DNA of 64,000 bases from an uncultured Actinomycetes bacterium (GCA_963782515.1 CAWAJY010000006.1:349988-413987), one strand, 5' to 3'; positions 25,149-54,075 are shown, counted from the stretch's first letter. Numbers and translations: made by a program. The notes: generated by a model from the sequence alone, not told the origin.

Positions 25149-25949
25149 TCAGATCGTGAGCCCACCGTCCACCGGAACGGTCGCGCCGGTGATGCCGCTG
25201 CCGCCGGGGCCGAGGAGGAAGGCGATCGTCGCCGCTACCTCGTCGGGTCGGAGGAGGCGCTCCAGGGGTTGGCGGGGGGCGAAGTCGCGGGGCGAGGGCA
25301 ATTCGAAGAGGCGGGCGGACTCGGCGAGGAGCGGGGTGTCGGTCGAGCCGGGGGCGATCGCGTTGGCGGTGACGCCGCTTCCGTGGAGGTCGGCGGCGAG
25401 GCCGCGGATGAAGCCGACGACGCCGGCCTTGGCGGCGCTGTAGGCGGCGAGGCCCTGCATGGCACGGGCGGCGCCGGAGGAGGTGACGGCGACGAAGCGG
25501 CCGGAGCGCGGTCGCGGTCGTCCCAGGAGCGTCGGGACGACGAGGCGGGCGGCGAGCATCACCGCCTCGAGGTTGACCTCCAGCAGGGCCCGCTGCTCGT
25601 CCGCCCGCAGTTCCCAGGCGGGGACGCCGCCGGCGATCACGCCCGCGTTGGCGACGAAGGCGTCGAGGTCACCCCAGGTTTCGGCACCCTCGACCACGGC
25701 GGCGAGGGCGTCGCGGTCGCTCGCGTCGGCGACCACGGCGCGCGCCACGTCCTCACGTCCCGCCAGCTTCTCCGCCGTCGCCACCGCTTCGGCGAGGTCG
25801 CGCTCGCTCGCCATCGCGTAGGGCAAGCGGCTGTCCGGGGCGCAACGATCGACGGCGACGACGCTCCACCCGTCGGCGGCGAGCGCGGCCACCGTCGCCG
25901 CGCCGATCCCCCGCCCCGCCCCGGTGACGATCGCCACCCGCCGGTTCAA
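25149..25949 (-). CDS. SDR family oxidoreductase (resembles a mycofactocin-coupled SDR subfamily)
   Basis: Only in-frame start before the Rossmann motif is TTG 25949 (MNRRVAIVTGAGRGIGAA). DRCAPDSRLPYAMASERDL insert. YSAAK catalytic motif. Subfamily call is from memory. Confidence 0.65.
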   Translation of the reverse strand: MNRRVAIVTGAGRGIGAATVAALAADGWSVVAVDRCAPDSRLPYAMASERDLAEAVATAEKLAGREDVARAVVADASDRDALAAVVEGAETWGDLDAFVANAGVIAGGVPAWELRADEQRALLEVNLEAVMLAARLVVPTLLGRPRPRSGRFVAVTSSGAARAMQGLAAYSAAKAGVVGFIRGLAADLHGSGVTANAIAPGSTDTPLLAESARLFELPSPRDFAPRQPLERLLRPDEVAATIAFLLGPGGSGITGATVPVDGGLTI

Positions 25950-25957
25950 AACACCAT

Positions 25958-26006
25958 GTTGATGGGCCGAAAACCGGACATATAGACGGGTTTTCGGCCC
26001 ATCAAC
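25958..26006 (-). terminator. perfect 18-bp hairpin with AT-rich loop between the CoA-transferase stop and the SDR start
   Basis: gttgatgggccgaaaacc (25958-25975) pairs with ggttttcggcccatcaac (25989-26006). Loop ggacatatagacg. Overlaps the stop codon at 26002-26004. Confidence 0.5.
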
Positions 26007-27039
26007 GGGGAGGGTCGGGGACGGTGACGCTGAAGCGGGGGGCCGGGGCTGGTTGGGGGATGCCGTCGACGTCGACGAAGACGCCGCGGTCGCGGTTGTG
26101 GCCGTCCTCGCGCGCCTCGCGCATCGAGAGCACCGGGGCGACGCAGCAGTCGGAGTCGGCGAAAAGCTCATGCCACTCGTCCCGGGTGCGCTCGGCGAAC
26201 TTGGCGGTGAAGCGCTCGCGGATCACGGGCCAGGTGGCCGGGTCGAGGTGGTTGGCGATCTCCTCGTCGCCCGCCATCCCGAGCGCCTCCAGCAGCGCCG
26301 CGTAGAACTGCGGCTCGAGCGCCCCGACCGCGACCCACCCGCCGTCGGCGCAACGGTAGGTGTCGTAGAAGGGCGCGCCGCCGTCGAGCAGGTTGACGCC
26401 GCGCTCATCGCGCCAGGCGCCCTGCTCGAGGAAGCCGTGCAGCATGCCGGTGACCGAGACGGCGCCGTCGACGATCGCCGCGTCGACCACCTGACCGACC
26501 CCCCCGGCCCGCGCGTGCAGCAACGCGCCGAGCACGCCGACGACGAGGTAGGTGGCGCCCGCGCCGAAGTCCCCGAGCAGGTTGACGGGCGGGACCGGCT
26601 TGCGGTCCGGCTCGCCCACCATGTGGAGCGCGCCCGAGATCGCCAGGTAGGTGATGTCGTGGCCGGCGGTGTGGGCATAGCGGCCCGACTGTCCCCAGCC
26701 GGTCATCCGGCCGTAGACCAGCGCCGGGTTGCGACCGAGGCACTCCTCGGGCCCGAGGCCGAGGCGCTCCATCACGCCCGGGCGGAAGCCCTCGATCAGG
26801 ACCTCCGCCGCCGCGATCAGCCCGAGCACCTCTTCGACGCCCTCGGCCGACTTGAGGTCGACCTGGCGCGCGTCCCGGCCGCGGTCGAGCACCGGCGAGG
26901 CGCCCCAGGCCAGGCCGCCGCCCCGCGGTCGTTCGATCCGCGTCACCTCGGCGCCGAGGTCGGCGAGCATCATCCCGGCGAAGGAGATCGGCCCGATCCC
27001 GGCCATCTCCACGACCTTCACCCCCTGCAGCGGCCCCAT
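26002..27039 (-). CDS. family III CoA-transferase (CaiB/BaiF; alpha-methylacyl-CoA racemase-like)
   Basis: 345 aa. The N-terminus MGPLQGVKVVEMAGIGPISFAGMMLADLGAEVTRIERP is typical of MCR/AMACR-type members. Confidence 0.8.
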   Translation of the reverse strand: MGPLQGVKVVEMAGIGPISFAGMMLADLGAEVTRIERPRGGGLAWGASPVLDRGRDARQVDLKSAEGVEEVLGLIAAAEVLIEGFRPGVMERLGLGPEECLGRNPALVYGRMTGWGQSGRYAHTAGHDITYLAISGALHMVGEPDRKPVPPVNLLGDFGAGATYLVVGVLGALLHARAGGVGQVVDAAIVDGAVSVTGMLHGFLEQGAWRDERGVNLLDGGAPFYDTYRCADGGWVAVGALEPQFYAALLEALGMAGDEEIANHLDPATWPVIRERFTAKFAERTRDEWHELFADSDCCVAPVLSMREAREDGHNRDRGVFVDVDGIPQPAPAPRFSVTVPDPPR

Positions 27040-27183: not shown

Positions 27184-27609
27184 ATGAGCGCTGCCGAGAC
27201 CGGAACGAGCCAGGAGGCTCAGAACAAAGCGCTGGTGACCGAGTTCATGGAGGTCTTCAGCAAGGGTGAAGTCGACGAGATCCTGGAGATGATGGACGAC
27301 TCGGCCACCTGGTGGGTCGCGGGGACCCTCGAGGGCATCTCCGGCACCAAAGACAAGAAGGGCTTCGGCGAAATGCTCGGCGGCATCTCCGAGGGATGCG
27401 AGGGCGGCGCGATCCGCCTCACCCCCCTTGCCTGGACCGCCGAGGGCGACCGTGTCGCGGTCGAGACCGAAAGCTACGCCGACGTCAAGAACGGCCGCAC
27501 CTACAACAACCTCTACCACTTCGTCTTCGAGGTCCGCGACGGCAAGATCCAGAGCGTCAAAGAGTTCCTCGACACCGAGCACACCGCCGCCGTCTTCCTC
27601 GCTCCCTAG
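27184..27609 (+). CDS. SnoaL-like / NTF2-fold protein
   Basis: 141 aa with a GTAGGAGGA RBS. NKALVTEFMEVFSKGEVDEILEMM...WWV pattern of SnoaL-like polyketide cyclase-fold proteins. Confidence 0.7.
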   Translation: MSAAETGTSQEAQNKALVTEFMEVFSKGEVDEILEMMDDSATWWVAGTLEGISGTKDKKGFGEMLGGISEGCEGGAIRLTPLAWTAEGDRVAVETESYADVKNGRTYNNLYHFVFEVRDGKIQSVKEFLDTEHTAAVFLAP

Positions 27610-27629
27610 CTCTCCCCCAACGCCCGACC

Positions 27630-27670
27630 CCCCGCGCGCCGGTTCCCGGATCGGGAGCCGGCGCGCGGGG
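27630..27670 (+). terminator. GC-rich hairpin after the SnoaL-like gene
   Basis: ccccgcgcgccgg (27630-27642) pairs with ccggcgcgcgggg (27658-27670), with inner cccg/cggg pairing. No U tract. Confidence 0.45.
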
Positions 27671-27681
27671 GTGCGCGGGGA

Positions 27682-28099
27682 GGGACGGGCCGGAGGAAGC
27701 CGGCGCCCGAGGTGAGGGACGCAAGGGCTGGCGGCGAGCGCGGCCGTCTCGGCCACGGCCCTGGCCGGCTGTGGCCGCGGCCGAGACGGCCGGGTATGAA
27801 AGCGGCGGAGGAACCGTGACGTCGATGAGGGAGACGCCACGAAGTCCACACTTCCTCCCGGGTTCTTCCACTGTCCGACGCCGCCGCCGGCAACCCTTAG
27901 ACCTTGGTAGCCCTGTGGGCTACCAAGGTCTAAGGGTTGGGTTCCGGCCCATCGAGGCAATCACGGGAGTCCGGACTTCGTGCCGTCCCTGTGCCCGTTG
28001 TTTCACGAACCCCTCACGTCCTGGGCGTCTCATGGCGGTCCTGGCAAGCTGTGACAGCCATGAGACGCCCAGGACCGATCTCGGACGGCCGGAGCGGCC
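27682..28099 (+). repeat. mosaic hairpin repeat, locus G (type I: M1-M2-core fragment-M3-M4-truncated M5)
   Basis: M1 27682-27741. M2 27742-27791. M3 27894-27936 (loop ctgtg). M4 28018-28075 with an inverted loop (ctggcaagctgt). The M5 stub 28082-28099 runs into the stop codon of the RibBA-like gene. Confidence 0.85.
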
Positions 28100-29187
28100 T
28101 AGATCGCGGTGTCGACGCAGCGGGAGCCCGAGCGCCTGCGGGGAGCGGTGCGGGGGCGGGCCACCTCGACGCCGCGCTCGCGCAGTGGGGCTGCCTGGGC
28201 GGGGTCGAGGGGGAGGACCGAGGCCGGTGCGAGCTCGTCGAGGGTGGCGGCGGCCAGGTCGAAGGTGCGGGGGTCCTCCGGGTCGACATCGCGAAGGTGG
28301 ATGAGGATCCCGGCCTCGGCGCGGGCGAAGCGTCGCAGGAGGGCGACCAGGCTGCTCTCGCCGGTCGGGGCGAGGGTGGTGATGAGGTCGTCGATCGGCG
28401 AGGAGGCGCGGATCGCCAGGGGCACCTCCCGGCGACCCTCGACCTCGCCGCGGACCAGCGCCGCGTGCGCCTCGCCGGTCACCTCGTTGGTCAGGCTGAC
28501 CGCGGTGAAGGCCCCGTGCTGGGTGACGACCCTCCGGCGCTCGGTCGCCCGGACCGGCCGCTCGGCCGCGATCCGGCGGGCGGCGACCTCGGTGACCGTG
28601 ACCAGGGGCAGGTGGCGCTCGGCGGCGGTGGCGCGGACCTCGGCCGCGCTCGCGGTCCGACCGGCCTCATCGAGCATCGCGCAGATCGCCGCCGCCCCGG
28701 TGCCACCGGCGAGCCGGACCAGATCGACGGCCGCCTCGGGCGCCCCGCGCGCGGCGAAGACGCCCGCGTCGGCGGCGATCAGCGGCGGCACGTGGCCGGG
28801 GACCACGAGGTCGGAGGACCGCGTCGCCGGGTCGGCGACGACCCGCGCGGTGTTCGCCCGCTCGGCCGCCGAGATCCCGGTCGTCGTCCCCACCCGCGCG
28901 TCCACCGACGCCGCGATCCGCCGCGCCCGACCGCCGGCCGCCGGCCGCCGGCTCCCGATCGGGGAACCAGCGTGCGCGGTGCCGGTGCGGGGCTGCTGCT
29001 CGGGGAGGTTCAGCTCACCGGCGCGGCCGGCGGCGAGGACGACGGAGAAGATCCCGCCGCCCGCGTCGAGCATCGCGACGACGTCCTCGGTGCTCGTGCC
29101 GCGGGCGTCGCGGAGGAGGTGGCCGACGCCCTCGTCGTCAAGCAGGACCACGATCTCACCGCGGGCGATGGCCTCGATCGCCGTCAC
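28099..29187 (-). CDS. RibBA-like protein (DHBP synthase / GTP cyclohydrolase II fold) with degenerate catalytic motifs
   Basis: 362 aa, GTG start in a GTGA overlap with the crotonase stop. Retains VPGHVPPL and EAAVDLVRLAG. The acidic DEDRENEGD loop is replaced by LDDEGVGHLL. The GCH-II Cys cluster is absent. Confidence 0.55.
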   Translation of the reverse strand: MTAIEAIARGEIVVLLDDEGVGHLLRDARGTSTEDVVAMLDAGGGIFSVVLAAGRAGELNLPEQQPRTGTAHAGSPIGSRRPAAGGRARRIAASVDARVGTTTGISAAERANTARVVADPATRSSDLVVPGHVPPLIAADAGVFAARGAPEAAVDLVRLAGGTGAAAICAMLDEAGRTASAAEVRATAAERHLPLVTVTEVAARRIAAERPVRATERRRVVTQHGAFTAVSLTNEVTGEAHAALVRGEVEGRREVPLAIRASSPIDDLITTLAPTGESSLVALLRRFARAEAGILIHLRDVDPEDPRTFDLAAATLDELAPASVLPLDPAQAAPLRERGVEVARPRTAPRRRSGSRCVDTAI

Positions 29188-29963
29188 CGTCCGGTCCAGA
29201 CCGGCGCCCGCTTCTCGGCGAACGCGGCGGCGCCCTCGCGGGCGTCAGCGGACCCCATGATCAGCTGGATGAAATCCTCCTGGCGCGTCCACGCCTCGGC
29301 CTCCGGCAGCTCGACCAGCTCGTCGACGATCTGCTTGGAGACGCGCACCGCGAGCGGCCCGTTGGCGGCGATCTTCGCGGCGAGCGCGAGCGCCTCGGCG
29401 AGCGCGCCACCGTCCTCGCAGACCCGGTTGACCAGGCCGAGCTCGTAACCGCGCCCGGCGTCGACCAGCTCGCCGGTCAGCGCCAGCTCCATCGCCACGT
29501 GGCGGGGAATCCGCCGCGGCAGGCGGAAGAGCGCCCCGGCGCCGGCGATCAACCCCCGCTGCGTCTCCGGGATGCCGAGCCGGGCGCCCCGCCCGGCGAC
29601 GATCAGGTCGCAGGACAGCGCGACCTCGAGGCCGCCGGCGACGGCGAAGCCCTCGACCGCGGCGATCATCGGCTTGGCCGGCGGGCGCTCGCAGATCCCG
29701 GCGAACCCACGGCCGCCCGCGTGCGGCGTCTCGCCGCGCAGGAACGCCTTCAGGTCCATGCCCGAGCAGAACCCCTTGCCGGCGCCGGTGATGACGCCGA
29801 CCCGCAGCTCCTCCTCGGCCTCGAGCCTCTCGACCGCGGCGGCGACGCCCTCGGCCAGCGCGCCGTCCACCGCGTTGCGCGCCTCGGGCCGATTCAGGGT
29901 GACGAGCAGGACCCCGTCGCGCACCTCGGTGAGGACCGCGCCCTCGGCCCCATCGCTCCCCAT
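29184..29963 (-). CDS. enoyl-CoA hydratase/isomerase (crotonase)
   Basis: Start taken at MGSDGAEGAVLTEVRDGVLLVTLNRPEARNA. GAGKGFCSGMDL and AAVEGFAVAGG oxyanion motifs. TGATG overlap with the upstream SDR. Confidence 0.8.
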   Translation of the reverse strand: MGSDGAEGAVLTEVRDGVLLVTLNRPEARNAVDGALAEGVAAAVERLEAEEELRVGVITGAGKGFCSGMDLKAFLRGETPHAGGRGFAGICERPPAKPMIAAVEGFAVAGGLEVALSCDLIVAGRGARLGIPETQRGLIAGAGALFRLPRRIPRHVAMELALTGELVDAGRGYELGLVNRVCEDGGALAEALALAAKIAANGPLAVRVSKQIVDELVELPEAEAWTRQEDFIQLIMGSADAREGAAAFAEKRAPVWTGR

Positions 29964-30805
29964 CACGCGCTCCAGGTCGCGCTGGCACCCATCGTGATGT
30001 CGATCCCGGTGCCGCTGATATGACGACCGCGCTCGGAGGCGAGGAAGACGACGATGTCGGAGACCTCCTCCGGCTCGATCCACGGTTCCGGCAGCTTGTG
30101 CAGCGCTTCCATGATCGTTCCCTCGATGTCCTCGGTCGTCGGGTCCTCGAGGTCGGGGCGGAAGACGTGGTAGAGCGCCTTGTTCTCGAACATCATGTCG
30201 GTCTTCACGCAGGCCGGGCAGATGGCGTTGACGGTGATGTGGTGGGGCGCCAGCTCCAGCGCCGCCGACTTGACCATCCCGATCACGCCCCACTTGGCGG
30301 CGACGTAGTTGCCGAAGTTCGCCATCCCGGCCCGACCGGCGGTCGAGGCGGTGCAGATGATCCGCCCGGAATCCTGCGGGACCATCTTCTGGGCGGCGGC
30401 GCGGAGCGTGTTGAAGACCCCGGTGAGGTTGATGTCGATCACCGTCTGCCACTGCTCGTCGGTCATCTTCGCCAGTTCCTCGGCAGCCCAGATCCCCGCG
30501 TTGCAGCAGGCGACGTCGAGCGAGCCGAACTCTTCGACGGCACGGTCGGCGGCCGCGTCGACCTGGTCGGAGCGGCGCACGTCGACCGTCATCGACACCG
30601 CCTTGACGCCCTCGGCCTCGACCAGCCGGACGGTCTCCGCGAGGTCGCTCGCCGCCGCCATCTTGTAGGGGACGGGCGCGATTTCCTCGTGCAGGTCGGT
30701 GACGACGACGTTCGCGCCCTCGCGCGCCAGCGCCACCGCGTGGGTGCGACCCTGGCCGCGGGCGGCGCCGGTGATCAGGGCGGTCTTTCCTTCCAGCTCC
30801 TTCAT
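29963..30805 (-). CDS. SDR oxidoreductase, carveol-dehydrogenase-like (mycofactocin-coupled subfamily-like)
   Basis: GGAGGAG RBS. MKELEGKTALITGAARGQGRTHAVALAREGANVV...PYKMAAASDLAETVRLVE signature. YVAAK catalytic motif. Confidence 0.8.
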   Translation of the reverse strand: MKELEGKTALITGAARGQGRTHAVALAREGANVVVTDLHEEIAPVPYKMAAASDLAETVRLVEAEGVKAVSMTVDVRRSDQVDAAADRAVEEFGSLDVACCNAGIWAAEELAKMTDEQWQTVIDINLTGVFNTLRAAAQKMVPQDSGRIICTASTAGRAGMANFGNYVAAKWGVIGMVKSAALELAPHHITVNAICPACVKTDMMFENKALYHVFRPDLEDPTTEDIEGTIMEALHKLPEPWIEPEEVSDIVVFLASERGRHISGTGIDITMGASATWSA

Positions 30806-31866
30806 CTCTCCTCCATTTCGGTGAACCAGCGGGCCTCGGCCAGCAGGGCGGGGACGTCGTGCTCGAGCGCCGCCGCGTAGGGGGCGTCGGTGCGGCCGGC
30901 GACGAAGTGGGCGTGGGCCCCCTCGACGATCGCCGCCAGCTTCCAGAAGGCGAGCGCCATGTAGTACGGGAGCGCGGCCAGCGAGCGGCCGCTGCGCTCC
31001 TCGTAGAGCGCCGCCAGCTCGGCCCGGCTCGGCGCCCCCGACACGCGGCTGATCGCCTGCACCCAGGGCATCCCCATCGGCTCGGCGCGCTCGGAGCCCC
31101 AGAAGGCGAGGAAGAGGCCGACGTCGAGCAGCGGGTCGCCGATCGTCGACATCTCCCAGTCGATGATCGCCGCCAGCCGCGGCCGCGGCTCGACCGCGAA
31201 GAGGCAGTTGTCGACGTGGAAGTCGCCGTGGAGGATGCCGGGCGGGACGTCGTCGGGGCGGTTCGCCTCGAGCCACTCGGCAACCGGCTCGAAGTCGGCG
31301 AGCTCCCGGTGGCGATAGCGGTCGAGCTGCTTGCGCCAGCGCGGCACCTGGCGGGCGAGGAAGTCCTCGGGACGGCCGAAGTCCCCGAGCCCCAGGGCGC
31401 GCCAGTCGAGCGTGTGCAGGTCGGCCAGCGCGGTCGCGACCTGCGCGCCGACCGCCCGCACCGCGGCGCCCGGGTCCGCGGCCCAGGCCGCCGGCAGCTC
31501 GTCGCCGAGCGAGGTCCCCTCGACCTCCTCCATCAGCAGGAAGGGAGCCTCGGGGACGGACTCCTCGGTACACAGCCCGCGTGGCGCCGGGACCGGGACC
31601 GCGGTCGGGGACAGTGCCGCCAGCACCCGCTCCTCGCGCCCGACGTTGTGGGCCGAGGAATCGATCGTCGCCCGCGGCGGACGCCTCATCACCAGGCGCT
31701 CGGCCCCGGCGCTGAGCAGCATCGTCTCGTTGGAGTTGCCGCCCGCCAGCGACCGCAGGTCGTAGGGACCCTCGATCCCGGCCTCGGCCAGCCATGCCTG
31801 GAGCGCCGCGCTCGCGGTGCCCGGACCCGTCGCGACGGCTGCCGGCCGTCTCCCCTCGCTACCCAT
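30802..31866 (-). CDS. APH-like phosphotransferase (ACAD10/11 kinase-domain / LvaA-like family)
   Basis: Start taken at MGSEGRRP. GGNSNET, RRPP...SAHNVGRE, HGDFHVDN and IDWEMSTIGDPLLD motifs. The stop abuts the SDR start. Confidence 0.75.
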   Translation of the reverse strand: MGSEGRRPAAVATGPGTASAALQAWLAEAGIEGPYDLRSLAGGNSNETMLLSAGAERLVMRRPPRATIDSSAHNVGREERVLAALSPTAVPVPAPRGLCTEESVPEAPFLLMEEVEGTSLGDELPAAWAADPGAAVRAVGAQVATALADLHTLDWRALGLGDFGRPEDFLARQVPRWRKQLDRYRHRELADFEPVAEWLEANRPDDVPPGILHGDFHVDNCLFAVEPRPRLAAIIDWEMSTIGDPLLDVGLFLAFWGSERAEPMGMPWVQAISRVSGAPSRAELAALYEERSGRSLAALPYYMALAFWKLAAIVEGAHAHFVAGRTDAPYAAALEHDVPALLAEARWFTEMEER

Positions 31867-31981
31867 GGCCGCATCTTCCCCGCGTCCGCCCGGCGCACCC
31901 GCCGGCCCGCCGCGGCACCTTTGGAGTTCTCTCCAACCCCTCTCCGCCGCCCCCCGGCCGGCGCGCCATAAGGTGGCGCCG

Positions 31982-33259
31982 ATGGCGTGGGACTTCTCCA
32001 CCGACCCCGAGTTCGAGGCGCAGCTCGCCTGGATGCGCGACCTCGTCCGCGAGGAGGTCCTGCCCCTGGAGACGCTCGGCCTCGACTTCCCCACCTACCG
32101 GCGCGCGATCGCGCCGCTGCAGCGGCGGGTCAAGGAAAAGGGCCTCTGGGCCGCCCACCTGCCGCCGGATCTGGGCGGCCAGGGCCTCGGCCAGGTGAAG
32201 CTGGCGCTGATGCACGAGATCCTCGGCGCCACCGACTACGCGCCGCCGGTCTTCGGCAACCAGGCGCCCGACTCGGGCAACTCGGAGCTGATCGCGGTCG
32301 CGGGCACCGACGAGCAGAAGGCCCGCTGGATGGCGCCGCTGCTGGCGGGCGAGCTGCTCTCCGCCTTCACGATGACCGAGGAGGGCACCGGCTCGGACCC
32401 GACGCAGCTGAAGACCGCCGCCGTCCGCGACGGCTCCGACTGGGTCCTCGACGGGACCAAGTGGTTCATCTCCAACGCCGACAAAGCCGACTTCCACATC
32501 GTCATGGCACTGACCGACCCGGAGGCCGACCCGCACCGCCGCATGTCGATGATCATCGTCCCCGCCGACGCCGCCGGGATCACCGTGCGCGACCTCGGGG
32601 TGATGAACGACCCGGAGGTCCGCAACCCGATCCACACCCACTCCGAAGTGACCTTCGAGGGGGTCCGGGTCCCGGCCGAGAACCTGCTCGGCGAGCGCGG
32701 CGGCGCCTTCGCCCTGGCCCAGACCCGGCTCGGCCCCGGCCGCATCCACCACGCGATGCGCTGGCTCGGCGTCTCCCGGCGCGCCTTCGACATGCTCTGC
32801 GAGCGCGCCGTCAGCAAGTCGGTCCACGGCTCGACCCTCGCCGACAAGCAGACGATCCGCAACTGGGTCGCCGACTCGGCCGCCGAAATGCAGGCGGCGC
32901 GGATGATGACCATGCACGCGGCCTGGAAATGCGACCAGGTGGGGCCGAAAGCGGCCCGGAGCGAGATCGCGATGATCAAGTACCACGGGCCGAAGGTCAT
33001 GTACAACGTCCTCGACCGGGCGATCCAGGTGCACGGCTCGCTCGGCTTCTCCTGCGACATGCCGCTGGAGGAGATGTACCGCTACGCGCGGGCATCGCGG
33101 ATCTACGACGGGCCCGACGAGGTCCACCGCGAGAGCGTCGCCCGCCGCATCCTGCGCGGCTACGAGCCGCGCGAGGTGCCGACCGAACACATCCCCACCC
33201 GTCGCGCCGCCGCCCAGGCCCGCTTCGCCGAGCTGCTCGACGCCGCCTCGGTCAGCTGA
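31982..33259 (+). CDS. acyl-CoA dehydrogenase family protein
   Basis: 425 aa with an AAGGTGG RBS. FTMTEEGTGSDP and IYDGPDEVHR family motifs. Divergent from the kinase operon. Confidence 0.85.
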   Translation: MAWDFSTDPEFEAQLAWMRDLVREEVLPLETLGLDFPTYRRAIAPLQRRVKEKGLWAAHLPPDLGGQGLGQVKLALMHEILGATDYAPPVFGNQAPDSGNSELIAVAGTDEQKARWMAPLLAGELLSAFTMTEEGTGSDPTQLKTAAVRDGSDWVLDGTKWFISNADKADFHIVMALTDPEADPHRRMSMIIVPADAAGITVRDLGVMNDPEVRNPIHTHSEVTFEGVRVPAENLLGERGGAFALAQTRLGPGRIHHAMRWLGVSRRAFDMLCERAVSKSVHGSTLADKQTIRNWVADSAAEMQAARMMTMHAAWKCDQVGPKAARSEIAMIKYHGPKVMYNVLDRAIQVHGSLGFSCDMPLEEMYRYARASRIYDGPDEVHRESVARRILRGYEPREVPTEHIPTRRAAAQARFAELLDAASVS

Positions 33260-33260
33260 G

Positions 33261-34433
33261 GTGGGCGCCGCCGCCGGGCCGCTCGCCGGGGTCCGCGTCC
33301 TCGACCTGAGCAGGCTCCTCCCCGGCGGCTTCTGCACCGCGACGCTCGGCGACCTGGGCGCCGAGGTGGTGAAGATCGAGCAACCGGGGCAGGGCGACTA
33401 CATGCGCTGGGGCGATCCCAAGTTCGGCGCCGAGTCGGCGGCCAGCTGGACGATCGACCGCAACAAGCGCTCGGTCTCGATCGACCTGAAGAACCCCGAC
33501 GGGGTGCGGGCGCTGCTCGACCTCGCCGCCCGCGCCCAGGTCGTGGTGGAGAGCTTCCGCCCGGGCGTCGTCGACCGCCTCGGAGTCGGCTACGACGCGG
33601 TCCGCGCGGTCAACCCGGCGATCGTCTACTGCTCGATCACCGGCCACGGCCAGGACGGCCCGCTGCGCCTCGCCCCTGGCCACGACATCAACTACGTCGG
33701 CCGCGCCGGCATCCTCAGCATCAGCGGGCCCGCCGACGGGCTCCCCGCCGTCGCCGGCGTCCAGATCGCCGACCTCGGCACCGGCGGGCTCTTCAGCGCC
33801 GTCGGCATCCTCGCCGCCCTCTACCGCGCCCGCGAGACCGGCGAGGGGGACCACATCGACATCTCGATGACCGACGGTGCGCTGGCCTGGCTGTCGATCC
33901 ACCTCGAGGACTACTTCGCCTCCGGCGTCGACCCCGGCCGCGAGGGGATGGTCCTGAACGGGCGTTTTCCCTGTTACAACGTCTACCGCTGCGCCGACGG
34001 CCGCCACATCACCGTCGGCGCGCTCGAGGAGCAGTTCTGGGAGGTCCTCTGCGAGAAGACCGGCCGACCCGACCTCCTCCCCACCCAGTACGACCCAGAC
34101 GCGATCCCGCTGTGGCGCGAGGTCTTCGCCGCCAGGGCCCGCGACGAGTGGGTCGAGCTGCTCGCCGACGGCGCCTGCGTCGGCCCGGTCAACGACTTCG
34201 CCGAGGCGAGCGCCGAACCGCAGGTCCTCGCGCGCGGCATGGTGATCGACCAGGAGCACCCCGAAGCGGGGACGGTGCGCCAGATCGGCTCGCCGATCAA
34301 GCTGCGCGACCACCCGGTCGGGGTGCGCACGCCGGCGCCGAAGCTCGGCGCCGACACGCGGGCGCTGCTCGCCGAGGCGGGCTACCCGGAGGAGCGGATC
34401 GGCTCGCTGCTCGCGGACGGCGCCGTCGCCTGA
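33261..34433 (+). CDS. family III CoA-transferase (CaiB/BaiF)
   Basis: 390 aa, GTG start 2 nt after the ACAD stop. LAGVRVLDLSRLLPGGFCTATLGDLGAEVVKIE N-terminus. Confidence 0.8.
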   Translation: MGAAAGPLAGVRVLDLSRLLPGGFCTATLGDLGAEVVKIEQPGQGDYMRWGDPKFGAESAASWTIDRNKRSVSIDLKNPDGVRALLDLAARAQVVVESFRPGVVDRLGVGYDAVRAVNPAIVYCSITGHGQDGPLRLAPGHDINYVGRAGILSISGPADGLPAVAGVQIADLGTGGLFSAVGILAALYRARETGEGDHIDISMTDGALAWLSIHLEDYFASGVDPGREGMVLNGRFPCYNVYRCADGRHITVGALEEQFWEVLCEKTGRPDLLPTQYDPDAIPLWREVFAARARDEWVELLADGACVGPVNDFAEASAEPQVLARGMVIDQEHPEAGTVRQIGSPIKLRDHPVGVRTPAPKLGADTRALLAEAGYPEERIGSLLADGAVA

Positions 34434-36295
34434 GCGACGCCGACCTGGTCGCCGTCGCTGATCCGCCCGACCAGGCGCAGGATCAGCAGTCCGAGCTGCA
34501 GGGTGAGCTGGTCGTCGGCATCGGCGGCGACGTCGAGGTGGGTGATCTCGCGGATCCGCCCGAGCCGGTAGCGGATCGTGTTCTCGTGGACGTCCAGCAG
34601 CTCGGCCGAGCGGCGGACGCTGCGCGAGGCGGCGAAGAACATCTGCACGGTCGAGAGGAGGTCCTCCATGCCGGGGTCGAGGAGCTCGCCCAGGGTGTCG
34701 CGGGCGAAGCGCTCGGCGTCCTCCTTGCTGGTGCCGGAGAGCAGCAGCCGGGCGGCGCCGATGTCGGCGCTGGCCAGCACCCGGTAGGCGTCGGGCGGGC
34801 AGAAGACCGAGATGCAGCGCGACACCTGCTGCGCCTCGCGGAACGACGACGGGTACTGCGTCGCTTCGTCGCAGATCCCCGAGATCGCCACCGAGGCGAC
34901 CTCCTTGGCGCCCAGCGCGGTGAGCGCGTCGGCGGCGATCGCCTTGGCCTCGTCGATCCCCTTCTCGCCGTCGCGGCTCGCGAGTTCGATCACCGCGGCG
35001 ACGCCGTCCTCGACCCCGACCACCAGCGGGTTCGCCTCCGGATGGTTCTCCTGGAGCGCCTTGAAGACGCGCCCGGAGGGGAGCGGCGCCCGCTTCTCCC
35101 CTGTCGCGAACAGCATCACCGCGTGCGGCGCGGTCAGGTGGAGCCCGTGGAAGTGGGCGCGGCGCAGCAGCGAGGCGGGGTCGTCGGTGCCGACGATCAG
35201 GTCGCGGGCGAGGGTCTCCTGGGCGCGCATCTCGGCGTCGGCGGCGCGCCGCTCGGCGCTCATCTCGAGCGCCACGATCGTCCCCGCGCGGCGGGCGACG
35301 ATGCGGTCGTGGGCGTTGAACCAGCCGCCCTGCTCGATCACCACGAGGTAGCCCCAGGCGTCGCTGCCGACCATGATCGGCGCCGCCATCATCCGCTTCG
35401 CCAGCTTGGTCCGCCCGGCCGCGTCGATCACCGCCGGGTTGCGGCCCTGGATCTTGGTGATCACCCCGGCCAGATCCGGTTCGTGGCGCATCCGTGCCAG
35501 CACGCGGTCGAGCACCGCGCCGCCGTCGGCGTCGTTGCCGGCTGTCGCCAGCGGCCGCATCCCCGCGTCGACCACCATCGTCGGCTTGCCGGTCAGTTCG
35601 GCGACCGCCTCGGTGATCTCGTGCAGGTTGGCGCCTTTGAGGACCAGCGTCGCCAGCCGTTCCTCGATCGCCGCGGCGGTGCGCAGCAGCTTGTTCTGCC
35701 GCTCCACCGTCTGCAGCGAGGTGCGCAGCTCCGAGGTCAGCTGGGCGTGGGAGATCGCGATCGCCGCCAGGTTGGCGAAGGTCCCGCAGAGCGACTGCTC
35801 GTTCTCGGAGTAATCGTGCGGCTGGTCTTCGTTGTCGAGGAAGAGCAGCCCGACGACCTGGCCTTTGCGGACCATCGGCACGCCGAGCATCGTCTGGACG
35901 TTCCACTCGAGCATCGTCGAGCGCACCGGGCGTGGATCCGACTGGGCGTTGACGATCAGCACCGGCCGCTTTGTGGTGAGGATCTCGCGGGTGAAGCCGT
36001 CGGCCTCGATCCCCGCCGTGAGGCCCTTGATCGCGGCGTCGATGTTGCGGTCGGCATGGCCGACCTGGCCACGGAAGAGCCCGGTGCGTTCGTCCCGCAG
36101 GTAGACGCTGCATCGACGGACGTCGAGCAGCTCGCAGATCCGCATCGCGACGATGTGCAGGAGCGCGTCGAGGGCGACGTGCTCGGTGATCGCCCCGGAG
36201 ATTTCGTTGAAGGCCTCGACGACCTCCGGGAATCCGGCGGGCCGACGGCCCCCCTTCACCTTGTCGGACCTGCCGACGAGCTCATCGACGGCCAT
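34382..36295 (-). CDS. GAF-domain PucR/CdaR-family transcriptional regulator
   Basis: 637 aa. N-terminal GAF-like region. C-terminal PucR HTH (LDVHENTIRYRLGRIREIT). Its 3' end overlaps the convergent CoA-transferase by 52 nt. Confidence 0.75.
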   Translation of the reverse strand: MAVDELVGRSDKVKGGRRPAGFPEVVEAFNEISGAITEHVALDALLHIVAMRICELLDVRRCSVYLRDERTGLFRGQVGHADRNIDAAIKGLTAGIEADGFTREILTTKRPVLIVNAQSDPRPVRSTMLEWNVQTMLGVPMVRKGQVVGLLFLDNEDQPHDYSENEQSLCGTFANLAAIAISHAQLTSELRTSLQTVERQNKLLRTAAAIEERLATLVLKGANLHEITEAVAELTGKPTMVVDAGMRPLATAGNDADGGAVLDRVLARMRHEPDLAGVITKIQGRNPAVIDAAGRTKLAKRMMAAPIMVGSDAWGYLVVIEQGGWFNAHDRIVARRAGTIVALEMSAERRAADAEMRAQETLARDLIVGTDDPASLLRRAHFHGLHLTAPHAVMLFATGEKRAPLPSGRVFKALQENHPEANPLVVGVEDGVAAVIELASRDGEKGIDEAKAIAADALTALGAKEVASVAISGICDEATQYPSSFREAQQVSRCISVFCPPDAYRVLASADIGAARLLLSGTSKEDAERFARDTLGELLDPGMEDLLSTVQMFFAASRSVRRSAELLDVHENTIRYRLGRIREITHLDVAADADDQLTLQLGLLILRLVGRISDGDQVGVAQATAPSASSEPIRSSG

Positions 36296-36468
36296 GCGTC
36301 CACTCTCCTCCGGCGCCCCCGGCCCGAATCGTGCCAGGCCCGGATCCCTGCTCCCAGAGCGGAGGATAGCCCTTTGTGCCGATTATCTCCAGTGCCGTTT
36401 GTCGGGTCCCACAGTCCACCGCGCCGCCGCCCGCCACCGTTGGTGGCATTGCTGATTTCGTTCTCAGC

Positions 36469-36966
36469 GTGAGCCAGGCGACCTTCGACAGCCCCCACTT
36501 CCGCAAGGTGATGGGACACCTCCCGACCGGGGTCAGCATCGTCACCGGCCACGGCGAGGAAGGGCCCGCGGGGCTTGCCGTCGGCTCCTTCATGTCGGTC
36601 AGCCTGGAGCCGCCGCTGATCGCGGTCAGCCCGGCGCTCACCTCGACCAGCTGGCCCGCGATCCGCGAGACCGGCGGCTTCTGCGTCAACGTCCTGGGCG
36701 AGGCCCAGGCCGAGCTGGCGCGCCGCTTCGCCGTCTCCGGCGGGGACAAGTTCGCCGATCTCGGGTGGCGCCGCGGACCCTCCGGGGCGCCGATCCTCGC
36801 CGGCGCGGTGGCCTGGATCGACTGCCGGACCGAGTCCGAGCAGGTCGCCGGCGACCACTGGCTCGTCCTCGGCCGGGTGCTGGAGCTCGACGTCGAGGAG
36901 CCCGGCGACCCGCTGATCTTCCACCGCGGCGCCTTCGACCGCTTCCGCGCGACCGAGCGGGAGTAG
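36469..36966 (+). CDS. flavin reductase (HpaC-like, FMN-binding split barrel)
   Basis: GTG 36469 gives 165 aa. FRKVMGHLPTGVSIVT...GLAVGSFMSVSLEPPL signature. Confidence 0.75.
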   Translation: MSQATFDSPHFRKVMGHLPTGVSIVTGHGEEGPAGLAVGSFMSVSLEPPLIAVSPALTSTSWPAIRETGGFCVNVLGEAQAELARRFAVSGGDKFADLGWRRGPSGAPILAGAVAWIDCRTESEQVAGDHWLVLGRVLELDVEEPGDPLIFHRGAFDRFRATERE

Positions 36967-42609: not shown

Positions 42610-42841
42610 TGAATCTCCTCTCTGAAGTGGCCCACCGGGTCCCCCCCGGCGCTGGCAATCGCGAACTTAGGAGGTGCCGATTGCGCCAGGCGCCCGAGTT
42701 CTCGCGAGCGTTGTCGATGTCTCCAATCCGCGCCCCCTCTCCACAGGCCGATCCGGTGACGCCGCGGCCGCCGCGCGCTACGTTCGGTGAGGGTCGGCAC
42801 GCCGCGCGCGAAACCGAGACGACGAGAGGAGAAAGCCGCAG

Positions 42842-44464
42842 ATGAAGAGCACGATGTCGGCGATGCCGCTGACGACGAGGTTGATCTACGACCACGGCAG
42901 GACGGTCCACCACCGCAGCCTCGTCACCACCTACGCGGCCGACGGCTCCTCCACCTCCCAGACCTACGCCGAGGTCGCCGCGCGCGCCGACCGGCTCGCC
43001 GCCGGCCTGCAGGCGATGGGCATCGTGCCGGGCGATCGCGTCGGCACCTTCTGCTGGAACCACGGCGACCACCTCGCCACCTACTTCGGCGTCCCCTGCA
43101 TGGGGGCGGTGCTCCACACGGTGAATCTGCGCCTCTTCCCCGAACAGGTCGCCTTCGTCGTCAACCACGCCGAGGACCGGGTGCTGATCGTCGACCAGAC
43201 GCTGGTCGACCTGCTGGCGCCGATCGCGGACTCGCTCGCCACGGTCGAGCGCTTCCTCGTCATCGGCGGCGACGGCGCCGCCCTGGGCGAGCGGGCGATG
43301 CCCTTCGAGGACGCGCTGGCGGCGCCCGAGGTCGAGCCCGGGTGGCCGGAGCTCGACGAGTCCGCGGCCGCCTCCATCTGTTACACGAGCGGCACCACCG
43401 GCGACCCGCGCGGGGTCGCCTACGGACATCGCTCGACCTTCGTCCACTCGATGGCCCAGTGCGCGACCAACGCCTTCGGCATCGGCCAGGACGACACGAT
43501 CATGCTGATGGTCCCGATGTTCCACTCGAACGCCTGGGGCCTCCCCTACTCGGGCTGGATGTCGGGCGCCGACTTCGTGATGCCGCAGGCGACCCTCGAC
43601 GCGGCCTCGCTCGCGCGGATGTTCAAGGAGCGCCGGCCGACCTTCACCGCGGGCGTGCCGACCCTGTTCAACGACCTGCTGAACCACACCGATCCCGAGC
43701 CGGTCGACCTCTCCACCCTGCGGGTCGCGGTCTGCGGCGGCTCGGCGGTGACCGGCGCGCTGATCGAGGCGATGCGCGCCCGCGGCGTGCCGATGCTGCA
43801 GGGCTGGGGGATGACGGAGACGAGCCCGCTCTGCGCCCTCTCGCACCCGCCCAAGCACACGCCGCCGGAGGAGGACAGCTACTGGCGCTCGAAGAGCGGC
43901 CGGCCCTCCTCGGCCGGGATCGAACTGCGGATCGTCGACGACGCGGGCGCCGAGCTGCCCTGGGACCGGGAGTCGGTCGGTGAGATCGAGGTCCGTGGAC
44001 CGTGGGTGACGACCTCCTACTACGGGATCGACACGCCGGAGAAGTTCGACCAAGGCTGGCTGCGCACCGGCGACGTCGGCTACGGCGACCCGGAGCGCTT
44101 CGTCCAGCTGACCGACCGCGCCAAGGACGTGATCAAGTCGGGCGGCGAGTGGATCTCCTCCCTCGACCTCGAGGACGGCCTCGCCTCCCACCCCGACGTG
44201 CTCGAGGTCGCGGTGATCGGCGTCGCCGACGAGCGCTGGGAGGAGCGCCCGCTCGCCTGCCTCGTCCTGCGCCAAGGCGCCGAGCTCGACCCGGCGGCCC
44301 TCGCCGACCACCTCGGCTCCCAGGTCGCCCGCTGGTGGATCCCCGAGCGCTGGTCGGCCCTCCCCGAGATCCCCAAGACGAGCGTCGGCAAGGCCGACAA
44401 AAAGGCCCTCCGCGCGGCCTACGTCGCCGGCGAGATCAAGGTCGTGAGCCCGACGCGGAGGTGA
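42842..44464 (+). CDS. AMP-dependent acyl-CoA ligase (FadD-like)
   Basis: 540 aa. YTSGTTGDPRG AMP-binding motif, GWGMTET, and a C-terminal PKTSVGKADKK. Confidence 0.85.
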   Translation: MKSTMSAMPLTTRLIYDHGRTVHHRSLVTTYAADGSSTSQTYAEVAARADRLAAGLQAMGIVPGDRVGTFCWNHGDHLATYFGVPCMGAVLHTVNLRLFPEQVAFVVNHAEDRVLIVDQTLVDLLAPIADSLATVERFLVIGGDGAALGERAMPFEDALAAPEVEPGWPELDESAAASICYTSGTTGDPRGVAYGHRSTFVHSMAQCATNAFGIGQDDTIMLMVPMFHSNAWGLPYSGWMSGADFVMPQATLDAASLARMFKERRPTFTAGVPTLFNDLLNHTDPEPVDLSTLRVAVCGGSAVTGALIEAMRARGVPMLQGWGMTETSPLCALSHPPKHTPPEEDSYWRSKSGRPSSAGIELRIVDDAGAELPWDRESVGEIEVRGPWVTTSYYGIDTPEKFDQGWLRTGDVGYGDPERFVQLTDRAKDVIKSGGEWISSLDLEDGLASHPDVLEVAVIGVADERWEERPLACLVLRQGAELDPAALADHLGSQVARWWIPERWSALPEIPKTSVGKADKKALRAAYVAGEIKVVSPTRR

Positions 44465-44760: not shown

Positions 44761-44885
44761 CCGCCCCCCCCAAGCCCTTGTAGAAACCCCCAACCCCCCT
44801 CTCGCGCCGCACCTCGCGCGCGGCTACGTTCTGGCGCACAGGACGAGACCGCGCGGGTGGGACCCGGGCGGAGAGGAGGAGCGAC

Positions 44886-48668: not shown

Positions 48669-49709
48669 CTAGGCCAAACCGCCCTCCAGCGCGTCGGCGG
48701 CCTGCTCGGCCAGGCTCGGGACGCCGGCCTCGAGGCGGGCGAAGAAGGGGTCGTCGGTGGTGCCGGCCTGGAAGCGGCGGTAGCTGCCCTCGAGCAGGAT
48801 GGCGAGCTTCCAGAGGGCCAGGGACTGGTACCAGGGGAGGCGGTCGACGTCGAGTCCGGAGGCGGTGGCGTAGCGGTCCACCAGTTGGGACCGGGTCGGA
48901 TAGCCGGCCTCGGTCGGCGCTCGCGAGAGGCCGAGGAGGCGTTCGGGGTCGTCGCCCTGCAGCCAGGTGGCGGTGAGGAAGCCGAGGTCGGCGAGCGGAT
49001 CGCCGATCGTCGCCATCTCCCAGTCGAGGATGGCGACGAGGCGGGCCGGCGAGGTCGGGGCGAAGGCCACGTTGTCGAGCTTGTAGTCACCGTGGACGAC
49101 GGTGGCCGGAGGCGAGGTCGGCAGGGAGCGGCGCAGCGCCTCGCCGGTCCGTTCGATCACCTCCACCTCGCGGGTCTTCTGCTGCTTCCACTGCTTCGAC
49201 CAGAGGTCGACCTGGCGCTCCAGGTAGCCGTTCGCGCGCCCGATCTGGGACAGCGCCTCCGAGCGCCGCCAGTCCACCCGGTGCAGCTCGAGCAGCGTGT
49301 CGACCAGCTCCTCGCCGATCCGCCCGCGGTCGGTCGGGTTGTCGAGCGGCGGGGGCGTCGCCGGGTCGGCGACGATGCCGTCGACCCGCTCCATCACGTA
49401 GAAGGGCGCCCCGATCACCCCCGGGTCGTCACAGGCGAGCACCACCTTCGGCACCCGCACGTCGAACTCCTCGAGCCCGGCGAGGATCCGGTACTCCCGC
49501 AGGACGTCGTGCGCCGAGGGCTGGATCGGCCCGCGCGGCGGCCGCCGGAGGACGAGCCGCCGGCCGCCGGCGTCGAGGAAGAAGGTGACGTTGGAGTGCC
49601 CGGCGGAGGCGCGTTCGAACGCCAGCTCGCCCAGGCCGAGGAGCCGCTCCAGCGCCTCGCGGACGATCAGCGGCTCCTCCGCGGCCTCGGTCTGGACGGG
49701 ACGAGACAC
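48669..49709 (-). CDS. APH-like phosphotransferase, paralog of 30802..31866
   Basis: 346 aa. GHSNVT, RRPPRGPIQPSAHDVLRE, HGDYKLDN and LDWEMATIGDPLADL motifs. Confidence 0.75.
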   Translation of the reverse strand: MSRPVQTEAAEEPLIVREALERLLGLGELAFERASAGHSNVTFFLDAGGRRLVLRRPPRGPIQPSAHDVLREYRILAGLEEFDVRVPKVVLACDDPGVIGAPFYVMERVDGIVADPATPPPLDNPTDRGRIGEELVDTLLELHRVDWRRSEALSQIGRANGYLERQVDLWSKQWKQQKTREVEVIERTGEALRRSLPTSPPATVVHGDYKLDNVAFAPTSPARLVAILDWEMATIGDPLADLGFLTATWLQGDDPERLLGLSRAPTEAGYPTRSQLVDRYATASGLDVDRLPWYQSLALWKLAILLEGSYRRFQAGTTDDPFFARLEAGVPSLAEQAADALEGGLA

Positions 49710-49716
49710 AGCGACG

Positions 49717-50481
49717 TCAGTAGTTCAGCCCGTTGACCGACCAACCGCCGTCGACCGGGAAGAGCAGTCCGGTCTGGAACGCCCCGTCGACCGGGTCGAA
49801 CAGGTAGGCCATCATCCCGGCGATCTCCGAAGCCTTGCCGAGCCGCTTGATCATGTGCGAGTTGGCGTTCTGCTCGCGCATCTCGTCGGTGATGTCCTTG
49901 AGGATCGGCGTGTCGATCGTCCCCGGCGCGATCGCGTTGACGAGGACGTTGTCCTTCGCGTATTCGAGCGCCGCCTGCTGGGTCAGCGCGATCACGCCGC
50001 CCTTGGCCGCCGAGTAGGAGGCCAGGTTGGTCAGCCCCTTGAGCGCCGCCAGCGAGGAGATGTTGACGATGCGGCCGCCGCCGTTGCCCTGGAAGACCGG
50101 GATCGCGGCCTGCATGCCGAGCCAGACCCCGCGCAGGTCGGTGTCGAGGACGTAGTCCCAGCCCTCGTCGGTGAGGCCGACGACCGAGTCCTCGGATTTG
50201 AGGTTGACGACACCGGCGACGTTGCCGAGCAGCTCGACCGGGCCGAAGGCCTCGGCGCACGCCTCGATCGTCCGCTGCCAGTCCTCGCGCTCGCGGGTGT
50301 CCATCTGGACCTGGAGCGCGTCGCCGCCGTCGGCGACGATCTGGTCGTAGGTCGTCGAATCGTCCTGGATATCGGCGCAGACGACCTTCGCGCCCTCCTT
50401 GGCCATCCGCACCGCGCACGCCTGTCCGATCCCCTGCGCGGCGCCGCTGATGATCGCCACTTTCCCGTCGAGTCGACCCAC
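49717..50481 (-). CDS. SDR family oxidoreductase
   Basis: AGGAGG RBS and GTG 50481. GKVAIISGAAQGIG and YSAAK motifs. Confidence 0.8.
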   Translation of the reverse strand: MGRLDGKVAIISGAAQGIGQACAVRMAKEGAKVVCADIQDDSTTYDQIVADGGDALQVQMDTREREDWQRTIEACAEAFGPVELLGNVAGVVNLKSEDSVVGLTDEGWDYVLDTDLRGVWLGMQAAIPVFQGNGGGRIVNISSLAALKGLTNLASYSAAKGGVIALTQQAALEYAKDNVLVNAIAPGTIDTPILKDITDEMREQNANSHMIKRLGKASEIAGMMAYLFDPVDGAFQTGLLFPVDGGWSVNGLNY

Positions 50482-50641
50482 GATTCCTCCTAGTCCATTG
50501 CCCTGTAGTGAGCGCGGGGTTTCCGCGCATCCCTTTTCTAGGCGAGCAACGGAGGCCGGGGGCGGACCTGGGGAAGCAGTCTTGTGGGTTCCCACAGGGG
50601 CCCCCCGCGCCGTTCGGCGGATAGCCGATAGCGTCGCGCCG

Positions 50642-52838: not shown

Positions 52839-54026
<1,188 letters not shown>

Positions 54027-54075
54027 CGATCCCTCCGTTCGTGTCATCGAAAGTCGCGTCCGGCCCGCGCCGGCG

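Follow-up and report, generated by a model that had tools for sequence, protein, structure and literature searches.

A divergent kinase and acyl-CoA dehydrogenase gene cluster from an uncultured actinobacterium, predicted to follow a split ACAD10/ACAD11-type route for 4-hydroxyacyl-CoA

Results

The window analyzed here, a 64,000-nucleotide stretch of DNA from an uncultured Actinomycetes bacterium (GCA_963782515.1, CAWAJY010000006.1:349988-413987), contains a divergent gene cluster that we propose, at a probability of roughly 0.7, to encode a split bacterial form of the ACAD10/ACAD11 (LvaA/LvaC) route, in which a 4-hydroxyl group would be removed from an acyl-CoA. The proposal centers on two genes: an APH-fold kinase (30802..31866, minus strand; Pfam APH, 156 bits), predicted to be a 4-hydroxyacyl-CoA kinase of the ACAD10/11-kinase and LvaA family, and an acyl-CoA dehydrogenase (ACAD) of the ACAD10/11/LvaC type (31982..33259, plus strand; three ACAD domains), predicted to eliminate phosphate from a 4-phosphoacyl-CoA. 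Downstream of the kinase, on the minus strand, are the genes for a mycofactocin-coupled, carveol-dehydrogenase-like short-chain dehydrogenase/reductase (SDR; 29963..30805; TIGR03971), a crotonase-fold enoyl-CoA hydratase resembling EchA1 and EchA19 (29184..29963; ECH_1, PRK08252), and a degenerate RibBA/RibBX-like protein (28099..29187; DHBP_synthase and partial GTP_cyclohydro2 domains). A family III CoA-transferase (33261..34433; CoA_transf_3, 352 bits), predicted to activate the free acid, follows the ACAD on the plus strand.

A preliminary description of this DNA had named these six proteins and a GAF-PucR regulator beside them. Pfam and NCBIfam searches place all six, with the domains it had listed, at the coordinates above, and the regulator is present at 34382-36295 on the minus strand. 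The tight minus-strand junctions that it had reported were also found when the sequence was read directly: the kinase stop and SDR start share ATGA (a 4-base overlap at 30802-30805), the SDR and crotonase meet at TGATG with base 29963 common to both, and the crotonase and RibBA-like genes overlap at GTGA (29184-29187). A single base separates the ACAD stop from the GTG start of the CoA-transferase, and the kinase and ACAD genes diverge on opposite strands with 115 bp between them. An analysis of G+C at third codon positions (GC3) is consistent with the annotated frames of the cluster genes. The same gene order is repeated in three orthologous loci (L011, L018, and L019) at 64-92% protein identity, and therefore the arrangement is not due to chance. 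The DNA of the window is actinobacterial, with 72% G+C, and lies on contig C6 of a 4.5 Mb host genome (six contigs, 88% complete) whose close relatives are metagenome-assembled genomes labelled uncultured Actinomycetes and Solirubrobacterales.

Signature residues of the kinase and the acyl-CoA dehydrogenase

The closest structural match in the PDB to the ACAD is mouse ACAD11 (8v3u; 268 bits, E 1e-78), with 4hr3, an ACAD from Mycobacterium abscessus, and 2wbi, human ACAD11, coming next, and the best classical ACAD structure scores only 186 bits. ACAD10, ACAD11, and LvaC are distinguished from other ACADs by a catalytic Asp (D753) that replaces Glu and by a phosphate-binding cluster formed by R626 and the H634-C-M-R637 helix, the HCMR motif (Rashan et al., PMC12440821). 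In HMMER alignments, the segment 'riyDGPdevh' of the cluster ACAD is placed against 'rlaDGPdevh' of ACAD11, which keeps the equivalent of D753, and the segment 'tRlgpgRihHAMR' keeps the equivalents of R626, R631, H634, and R637. This signature is present in only four of the 23 ACAD paralogs of the genome; the other 19 mostly have E-G-T or variants of it, with the classical catalytic Glu. A maximum-likelihood tree (IQ-TREE) of the 23 paralogs and the mouse ACAD11 domain, a set without LvaC, nests ACAD11 inside the four-member signature clade that includes the window ACAD (support 99/98). For the ACAD, a phylogeny of the kind called for in the preliminary description groups the enzyme with ACAD11 and not with the other ACADs. 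Orthologues in L011, L018, L019, and L017 keep the signature, as either HAMR or HCMR. A glutaryl-CoA dehydrogenase was considered and rejected (148 bits against a cut-off of 470).

For the kinase, three PDB structures stand apart from the rest. The two best matches, 9o56 (186 bits; an ACAD10-kinase homologue from Caldalkalibacillus thermarum) and 3dxp (174 bits; a Cupriavidus protein), are standalone bacterial homologues, the third is the kinase domain of mouse ACAD11 (141 bits, E 5e-40), and the next PDB family scores only 42 bits. Relative to ACAD11, 3dxp, and 9o56, the kinase keeps the β3 Arg ('lvmRrpp'), the αC Arg-Glu ('gREerv'), and the segments 'lHGDfhvDN' and 'iiDWEmst'. The HGDxxxDN and DWE motifs in the latter preserve the equivalents of the ACAD11 catalytic residues D220 and N225 and of its metal-binding DWE. 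In addition, 'REe' aligns to 'DREf' of ACAD11 and 'flaRQvprW' to 'ycKRQvstW', the latter supplying an equivalent of R176. Two Arg residues of ACAD11, R176 and the one beside the αC Glu, contact CoA in molecular dynamics modelling (PMC12440821); both are present in the cluster kinase. The kinase forms an orthogroup with those of L011, L019, L018, L017, and L012 (support 100/100). The genome holds exactly five kinases of the ACAD10/11-kinase family, with no further APH relative at E < 0.01, so that the kinase tree has no outgroup. Two of the five directly adjoin a gene for an ACAD11-type enzyme, and for another two such a gene is found at a distance of 3.4-12 kb. A role in antibiotic resistance was rejected, as aminoglycoside and capreomycin kinase models give 35-39 bits against cut-offs of 205-390.

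Split kinase/ACAD pairs from Pseudomonas putida and Burkholderia pseudomallei have been shown to carry out both the phosphorylation and the elimination (PMC6692424, PMC11342911). The pair described here probably belongs to the same known ACAD10/11 and Lva enzyme system, although it falls outside ACAD10/11 in the strict sense because the two genes are unfused. The preliminary assignment of the kinase and ACAD to the LvaA/LvaC and ACAD10-11 type is therefore supported, with the PDB matches, the published signature residues, and the ACAD tree in agreement.

The remaining enzymes and a proposed pathway

The CoA-transferase has human SUGCT (9br7, 244 bits) as its best PDB match, keeps the catalytic Asp in 'iaDlgtG', and scores under every NCBIfam equivalog cut-off. 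It is syntenic in L011, L018, L019, and L012. According to Pfam, the cluster contains no AMP-binding gene, and the nearest ligase is at 42842-44464. Activation of the acid through CoA transfer instead of a ligase is a reasonable inference, and the earlier suggestion that a CoA-transferase stands in the ligase's place is plausible given its position 1 base from the ACAD, its catalytic Asp, and its synteny.

The crotonase scores 368 bits with PRK08252 (cut-off 282) and matches 3trr (281 bits) and EchA1 (264 bits) in the PDB. Because both catalytic Glu residues are present (agglEva...giPEtq) and the protein belongs to an EchA1/EchA19-like subfamily, we assign it as a hydratase.

The SDR scores 335.5 bits with TIGR03971 (mycofactocin-coupled, subfamily 1; cut-off 300) and 212-231 bits with carveol dehydrogenases in the PDB, and resembles the proteins annotated as such in mycobacteria. 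It is like the mycofactocin-coupled SDRs (TIGR03971; LimC-like; 3t7c, 3s55, and 3uve) in its score, its GAARGQGR motif, its insert, and the presence of a mycofactocin system in the genome, which encodes MftC (639 bits) and, beside it, an MftA ending in IDGMCGVY. SDRs of this family hold a non-exchangeable NAD. To our knowledge, the characterised members oxidise alcohols, and we know of none in TIGR03971 that has been assigned to a 4-hydroxyacid or β-oxidation operon. The mycofactocin locus itself is outside the window, at C2:33720-40043, and also includes genes that we take, by sequence reading alone, to encode a TetR-like MftR, an MftD-like FMN dehydrogenase, an MftF-like glycosyltransferase, and one more SDR.

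Two roles for the SDR were weighed. Since the characterised members of its family, as far as we know, oxidise alcohols, we slightly prefer a 3-hydroxyacyl-CoA dehydrogenase that follows the hydratase over an LvaD-like reductase. In the latter, levulinate-type arrangement, the substrate would be a γ-keto acid and the SDR would convert 4-oxoacyl-CoA to 4-hydroxyacyl-CoA ahead of the kinase. LvaD of the lva operon is an SDR (PMC6692424), and adjacency of an SDR and a kinase in three of the five genomic kinase modules (A, C at window 48669-50889, and D) lends weak support to an LvaD-like role. However, LvaD uses free NADH or NADPH (PMC6692424), while the cluster SDR belongs to a family with non-exchangeable NAD, and its gene is directly upstream of, and coupled to, that of a true hydratase, as would fit a hydratase/dehydrogenase pair. 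We consider the levulinate-type arrangement possible, though not likely. The preliminary description had the SDR supplying the 4-hydroxy intermediate; for the same two reasons this lacks support as stated, and a dehydrogenase role is at least as likely.

Our current hypothesis for the pathway is as follows. The family III CoA-transferase would activate a free hydroxy or oxo acid, probably from succinyl-CoA, after which the APH-fold kinase would use ATP to phosphorylate the 4-hydroxyl of the acyl-CoA. The ACAD10/11-type flavoenzyme would then eliminate phosphate to give an enoyl-CoA in an FAD-dependent, net redox-neutral step. These first three steps draw on homology and conserved residues; the accessory roles and the two steps that follow are ones that we infer. 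In the fourth step, the crotonase would hydrate the enoyl-CoA to a 3-hydroxyacyl-CoA, and in the fifth the mycofactocin-coupled SDR would most likely oxidise this to a 3-oxoacyl-CoA, with the electrons passing to mycofactocin. Alternatively, the SDR may make or epimerise the 4-hydroxy substrate.

A degenerate RibBA-like protein accompanies the kinase

The last gene of the kinase operon encodes a protein that is far under every RibBA cut-off in NCBIfam (154 bits against 513-569). Its DHBP-synthase domain is without the RENEGD loop and the His-Thr of GHTEA, its cyclohydrolase domain is without all three zinc Cys residues and a catalytic segment of ~31 residues, and all of these are lost or replaced throughout its clade. 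Judged by these residues, the protein is catalytically dead in both domains. Riboflavin synthesis was rejected as its function on the grounds that both active sites are lost. An AlphaFold (AF2) model of the protein has a predicted local distance difference test (pLDDT) score of 89.8 and its best fold match is RibBX (6mnz; TM scores 0.74/0.79). In RibBX from Acinetobacter baumannii, the DHBP synthase is active and the GTP cyclohydrolase II domain is degenerate. The RibBA-like protein shares this two-domain fold and the inactive C-terminal cyclohydrolase-like domain, but differs in that its DHBP synthase domain is degenerate too and in that its gene is located in an acyl-CoA operon rather than among riboflavin genes.

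The clade of the RibBA-like protein consists of ~25 homologues at ≥47% identity, that is, at least 47%, followed by an abrupt fall to true RibBA at 35%, and many positions within it are invariant. The gene is not a pseudogene because the clade is tight, these positions are invariant, the fold is confidently predicted, and the start overlaps the crotonase stop; the pattern of conservation indicates purifying selection. In all six contexts that are informative, i.e., for which upstream DNA is available (the window, L011, L018, L019, L022, and L017), the RibBA-like gene is downstream of an orthologous kinase in the same operon, and in L017 it directly follows the kinase. The cluster is rare among the genomes sampled: searches of 300 other genomes of the class detected no member of the RibBA-like clade, and an orthologue-level kinase in a single genome. 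The preliminary description had correctly placed the RibBA-like gene in the operon but had given it no role, and yet it is a conserved partner of the kinase.

The partner of the kinase differs between lineages. In P. putida it is LvaB, which pulls down with LvaA (PMC6692424), in Pseudomonas citronellolis a histidine phosphatase occupies the slot (PMC6692424), and in ACAD10 a HAD domain does so (PMC11342911). Because the partner varies in this way, our best guess, made by analogy and held with low confidence, is that the dead RibBA-like protein may take the same variable slot and have an accessory role in the kinase step. A more specific scheme makes it a pseudoenzyme, recruited out of riboflavin synthesis, that serves as an obligatory non-catalytic subunit of the kinase/ACAD and binds the phosphorylated acyl-CoA or controls the kinase, as LvaB or the ACAD10 HAD domain would, and has the SDR either link 4-hydroxy-acid breakdown to mycofactocin or act as a redox-neutral 4-hydroxyl epimerase that feeds a stereospecific kinase. 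As a whole, we regard this scheme as doubtful.

Other RibBA-derived genes are found in the same genome. These include an intact RibBA at C4:1151257-1153206 and a RibBX-like copy at C2:216063-217715, in which the DHBP synthase domain is intact and the cyclohydrolase domain is degenerate and truncated. A second degenerate RibBA-like paralog, at C6:~117900-118935, is more divergent. In all, the genome holds four RibBA-derived genes at differing stages of degeneration. On metagenome contigs of two relatives (L016 and L021), the genes that come after the RibBA-like gene, on the other strand, encode a zinc alcohol dehydrogenase, an SDR, a glyoxalase-fold protein, and an LLM oxygenase, and the same stretch continues with a lactonase-like β-propeller, a YCII protein, and an IclR regulator. 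These neighbors hint at lactone or hydroxy-acid metabolism beside the module.

Points against the proposed route and further alternatives

Several points weigh against the proposed route. The comparison with the lva system is indirect, as it was made through ACAD11 and published motifs. The ACAD motif is HAMR rather than HCMR, an exchange of Cys for Ala. One orthologous locus, L012, keeps the kinase and the CoA-transferase and has no ACAD within 7 kb. The SDR may have either of the two roles and work in either direction, and the operon is without a thiolase, the nearest being ~19 kb away. The specific role offered for the RibBA-like protein, which we hold with low confidence, comes from context and analogy. 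More generally, the functions assigned to all cluster proteins are predictions from sequence.

It should also be noted that prokaryotic ACAD10-kinase homologues, 9o56 among them, are reported to phosphorylate 1-O-alkylglycerols in vitro (2026 preprint, PMC13596139). The kinase could accordingly act on another lipid alcohol, such as a 1-O-alkylglycerol, with only an indirect link to the ACAD. The top PDB match of the kinase, 9o56, is reported to phosphorylate chimyl alcohol with stimulation by acetyl-CoA (PMC13596139), which favors this possibility. On the other hand, the cluster kinase has HGDxH as in ACAD11 and 3dxp, where 9o56 has HYDxK, its divergent pairing with a phosphate-binding ACAD is kept down to 56-68% identity, and its operon mates are all acyl-CoA enzymes. 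We therefore consider an alkylglycerol kinase improbable. Least probable is a generic β-oxidation cluster with an ordinary ACAD, in which the APH and RibBA-like genes would be unrelated passengers, for instance a kinase for resistance and a riboflavin gene in decay. It would suit this window, a catabolic island with many genes for ACADs, SDRs, LLM oxygenases, thiolase, and ligase, but it is contradicted by the residue and synteny tests. The ACAD is without the classical catalytic Glu (E-G-T) and carries the ACAD10/11 signature, the kinase reaches only 35-39 bits with the resistance models, and the RibBA-like gene shows purifying selection (invariant clade positions, pLDDT 89.8, and a coupled junction).

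A conserved palindrome in the divergent promoter region

The 115-bp region between the kinase and the ACAD contains TTGGAGttctCTCCAA at 31921-31936, a palindrome of the form TTGGAG-N4-CTCCAA. Its arms are identical in four of the five orthologous loci, with L017 differing at the outermost base, and the DNA that flanks it has a mean identity of 62% among the loci. The exact form TTGGAG-N4-CTCCAA occurs once in the 4.5-Mb genome. Across the genome, a search returned only the cluster site and one looser site, at C6:126417, fewer than the 4.3 expected by chance for the 10-base core. The adjacent regulator (34382..36295, minus strand) has a GAF-GGDEF_2-PucR helix-turn-helix architecture in Pfam and is syntenic in L011, L018, and L019; a paralog with 39% identity is found beside a second kinase/enoyl-CoA hydratase/SDR/RibBA-like module. 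The palindrome is a good candidate for the operator of this regulator, and both divergent operons are probably controlled by the regulator through this one conserved site.

Copies of the palindrome with two mismatches are located at 42711-42726 and 44778-44793 of the window. Both are intergenic, the former upstream of an acyl-CoA synthetase/Liv-type binding-protein divergent pair and the latter upstream of an LLM oxygenase. The two copies are not significant, as 16 of 100 shuffles reach three matches. A scan of 27500-36500 for consensus sigma-70 promoters and terminators found none, as expected at 72% G+C. The regulator and CoA-transferase genes are convergent and their 3' ends overlap by 52 bp (34382-34433); this overlap is also present in L019 and is not present in L018.

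Comparison with known systems

Mammalian ACAD10/ACAD11 join a 4-hydroxyacyl-CoA kinase domain to an ACAD domain that eliminates phosphate from 4-phosphoacyl-CoA, and so channel 4-hydroxy acids into fat degradation. Both halves of these proteins (8v3u/8v3v; PMC12440821, PMC11342911) have homologues in the cluster, by the 268-bit match of the ACAD and the 141-bit match of the kinase. With ACAD11 they share the Asp that replaces the catalytic Glu and the equivalents of R626, H634, and R637 in the ACAD and of D220, N225, DWE, and R176 in the kinase. The cluster differs from the mammalian enzymes in having two separate, divergent genes instead of one fused polypeptide, HAMR instead of HCMR, and no HAD domain, and it adds a CoA-transferase, a crotonase, a mycofactocin-type SDR, and the dead RibBA-like protein.

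In P. putida KT2440, the lva operon consists of lvaABCDE with lvaR (Rand et al. 2017, summarised in PMC6692424). The cluster is like this operon and the B. pseudomallei pair in that the kinase and the ACAD belong to the same families and are encoded by separate genes, and like lva in having an SDR and a predicted product that enters β-oxidation. It is unlike lva in four respects: a CoA-transferase is present instead of the LvaE ligase; the overlapping junctions leave no room in the operon for a 12-kDa LvaB open reading frame, and a RibBA-like gene lies downstream; the regulator is of the GAF-PucR type, in contrast to the sigma-54-dependent LvaR; and the SDR is of the mycofactocin-coupled type, unlike LvaD with its free NADH or NADPH (PMC6692424). 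The crotonase and RibBA-like genes are additions relative to lva. The preliminary view that the same enzyme set as in lva is present goes too far, for the operon has no ligase, no sigma-54-type LvaR, and no room for LvaB.

The chemistry of the kinase and flavoenzyme is known from earlier work on Pseudomonas, Burkholderia, and mammals, and the core of the cluster would add an actinobacterial, Solirubrobacterales-like member; a literature search returned nothing on actinobacterial versions of the pathway. The cluster is set apart by its conserved dead RibBA-like partner, by one or more mycofactocin-type SDRs, by a CoA-transferase that replaces the ligase, and by the palindrome together with the GAF-PucR regulator. 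A doubly inactivated RibBA would join LvaB, the histidine phosphatase, and the HAD domain as a lineage-specific accessory of the kinase module, and such varied accessory proteins suggest that a partner of poorly understood function is generally required for the kinase step. A mycofactocin-coupled SDR in an operon of this kind would tie mycofactocin to a definite physiological task, the catabolism of hydroxy acids. The conserved palindrome and the regulator offer a possible handle for identifying the substrate.

Neighboring genes and related modules

Four further genes of the window probably belong to the same functional neighborhood. The first, divergent from the regulator, encodes an HsaB-like flavin reductase (36376..36966, plus strand; Pfam Flavin_Reduct) that scores 167 bits with the NCBIfam HsaB model, under the cut-off of 230. 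L018 and L019 also have this gene, and in L017 it directly follows the RibBA-like gene. On the other side of the cluster are genes for a second family III CoA-transferase (26002..27039, minus strand; Pfam), 39% identical to the first, and a second mycofactocin-coupled SDR, of subfamily 2 (25149..25949, minus strand; TIGR04504, 315 bits against a cut-off of 250). A gene for a small SnoaL/NTF2-like protein (27187..27609, plus strand; Pfam SnoaL_2), with its frame assigned by GC3, separates this minus-strand unit from the kinase operon, and there is no coding signal at 27610-28098, the stretch from this gene to where the RibBA-like gene ends. L019 and L022 likewise have the second CoA-transferase next to the cluster, and the SnoaL-like protein is conserved in L019, L022, and a relative from the same order (G259). 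In G259, the divergent ACAD and kinase pair is kept at 68% and 56% identity, with homologues of the second SDR (48% identity), the SnoaL-like protein, and the second CoA-transferase (52% identity) nearby. No RibBA-like gene, crotonase, or counterpart of the first SDR is present in the G259 locus.

A second module was found outside the window, at C6:117769-123428. Its plus strand carries a degenerate RibBA-like gene and the GAF-PucR paralog (39%), and its minus strand carries a crotonase (52% identity), a kinase (39%), and an SDR. Near this module are genes for a type I Baeyer-Villiger-like monooxygenase (C6:126400-128031), an LLM protein, and a zinc alcohol dehydrogenase, and an ACAD11-type ACAD is located 12 kb away, at C6:134555-135751. 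A third kinase of the family, 40% identical, is encoded directly downstream of an SDR in the window (48669-50889, minus strand). This SDR is under the mycofactocin SDR cut-off, and no ACAD11-type ACAD is nearby. The same island also encodes an EthD protein, LLM oxygenases, a thiolase (52839-54047), and a PNPOx-like protein.

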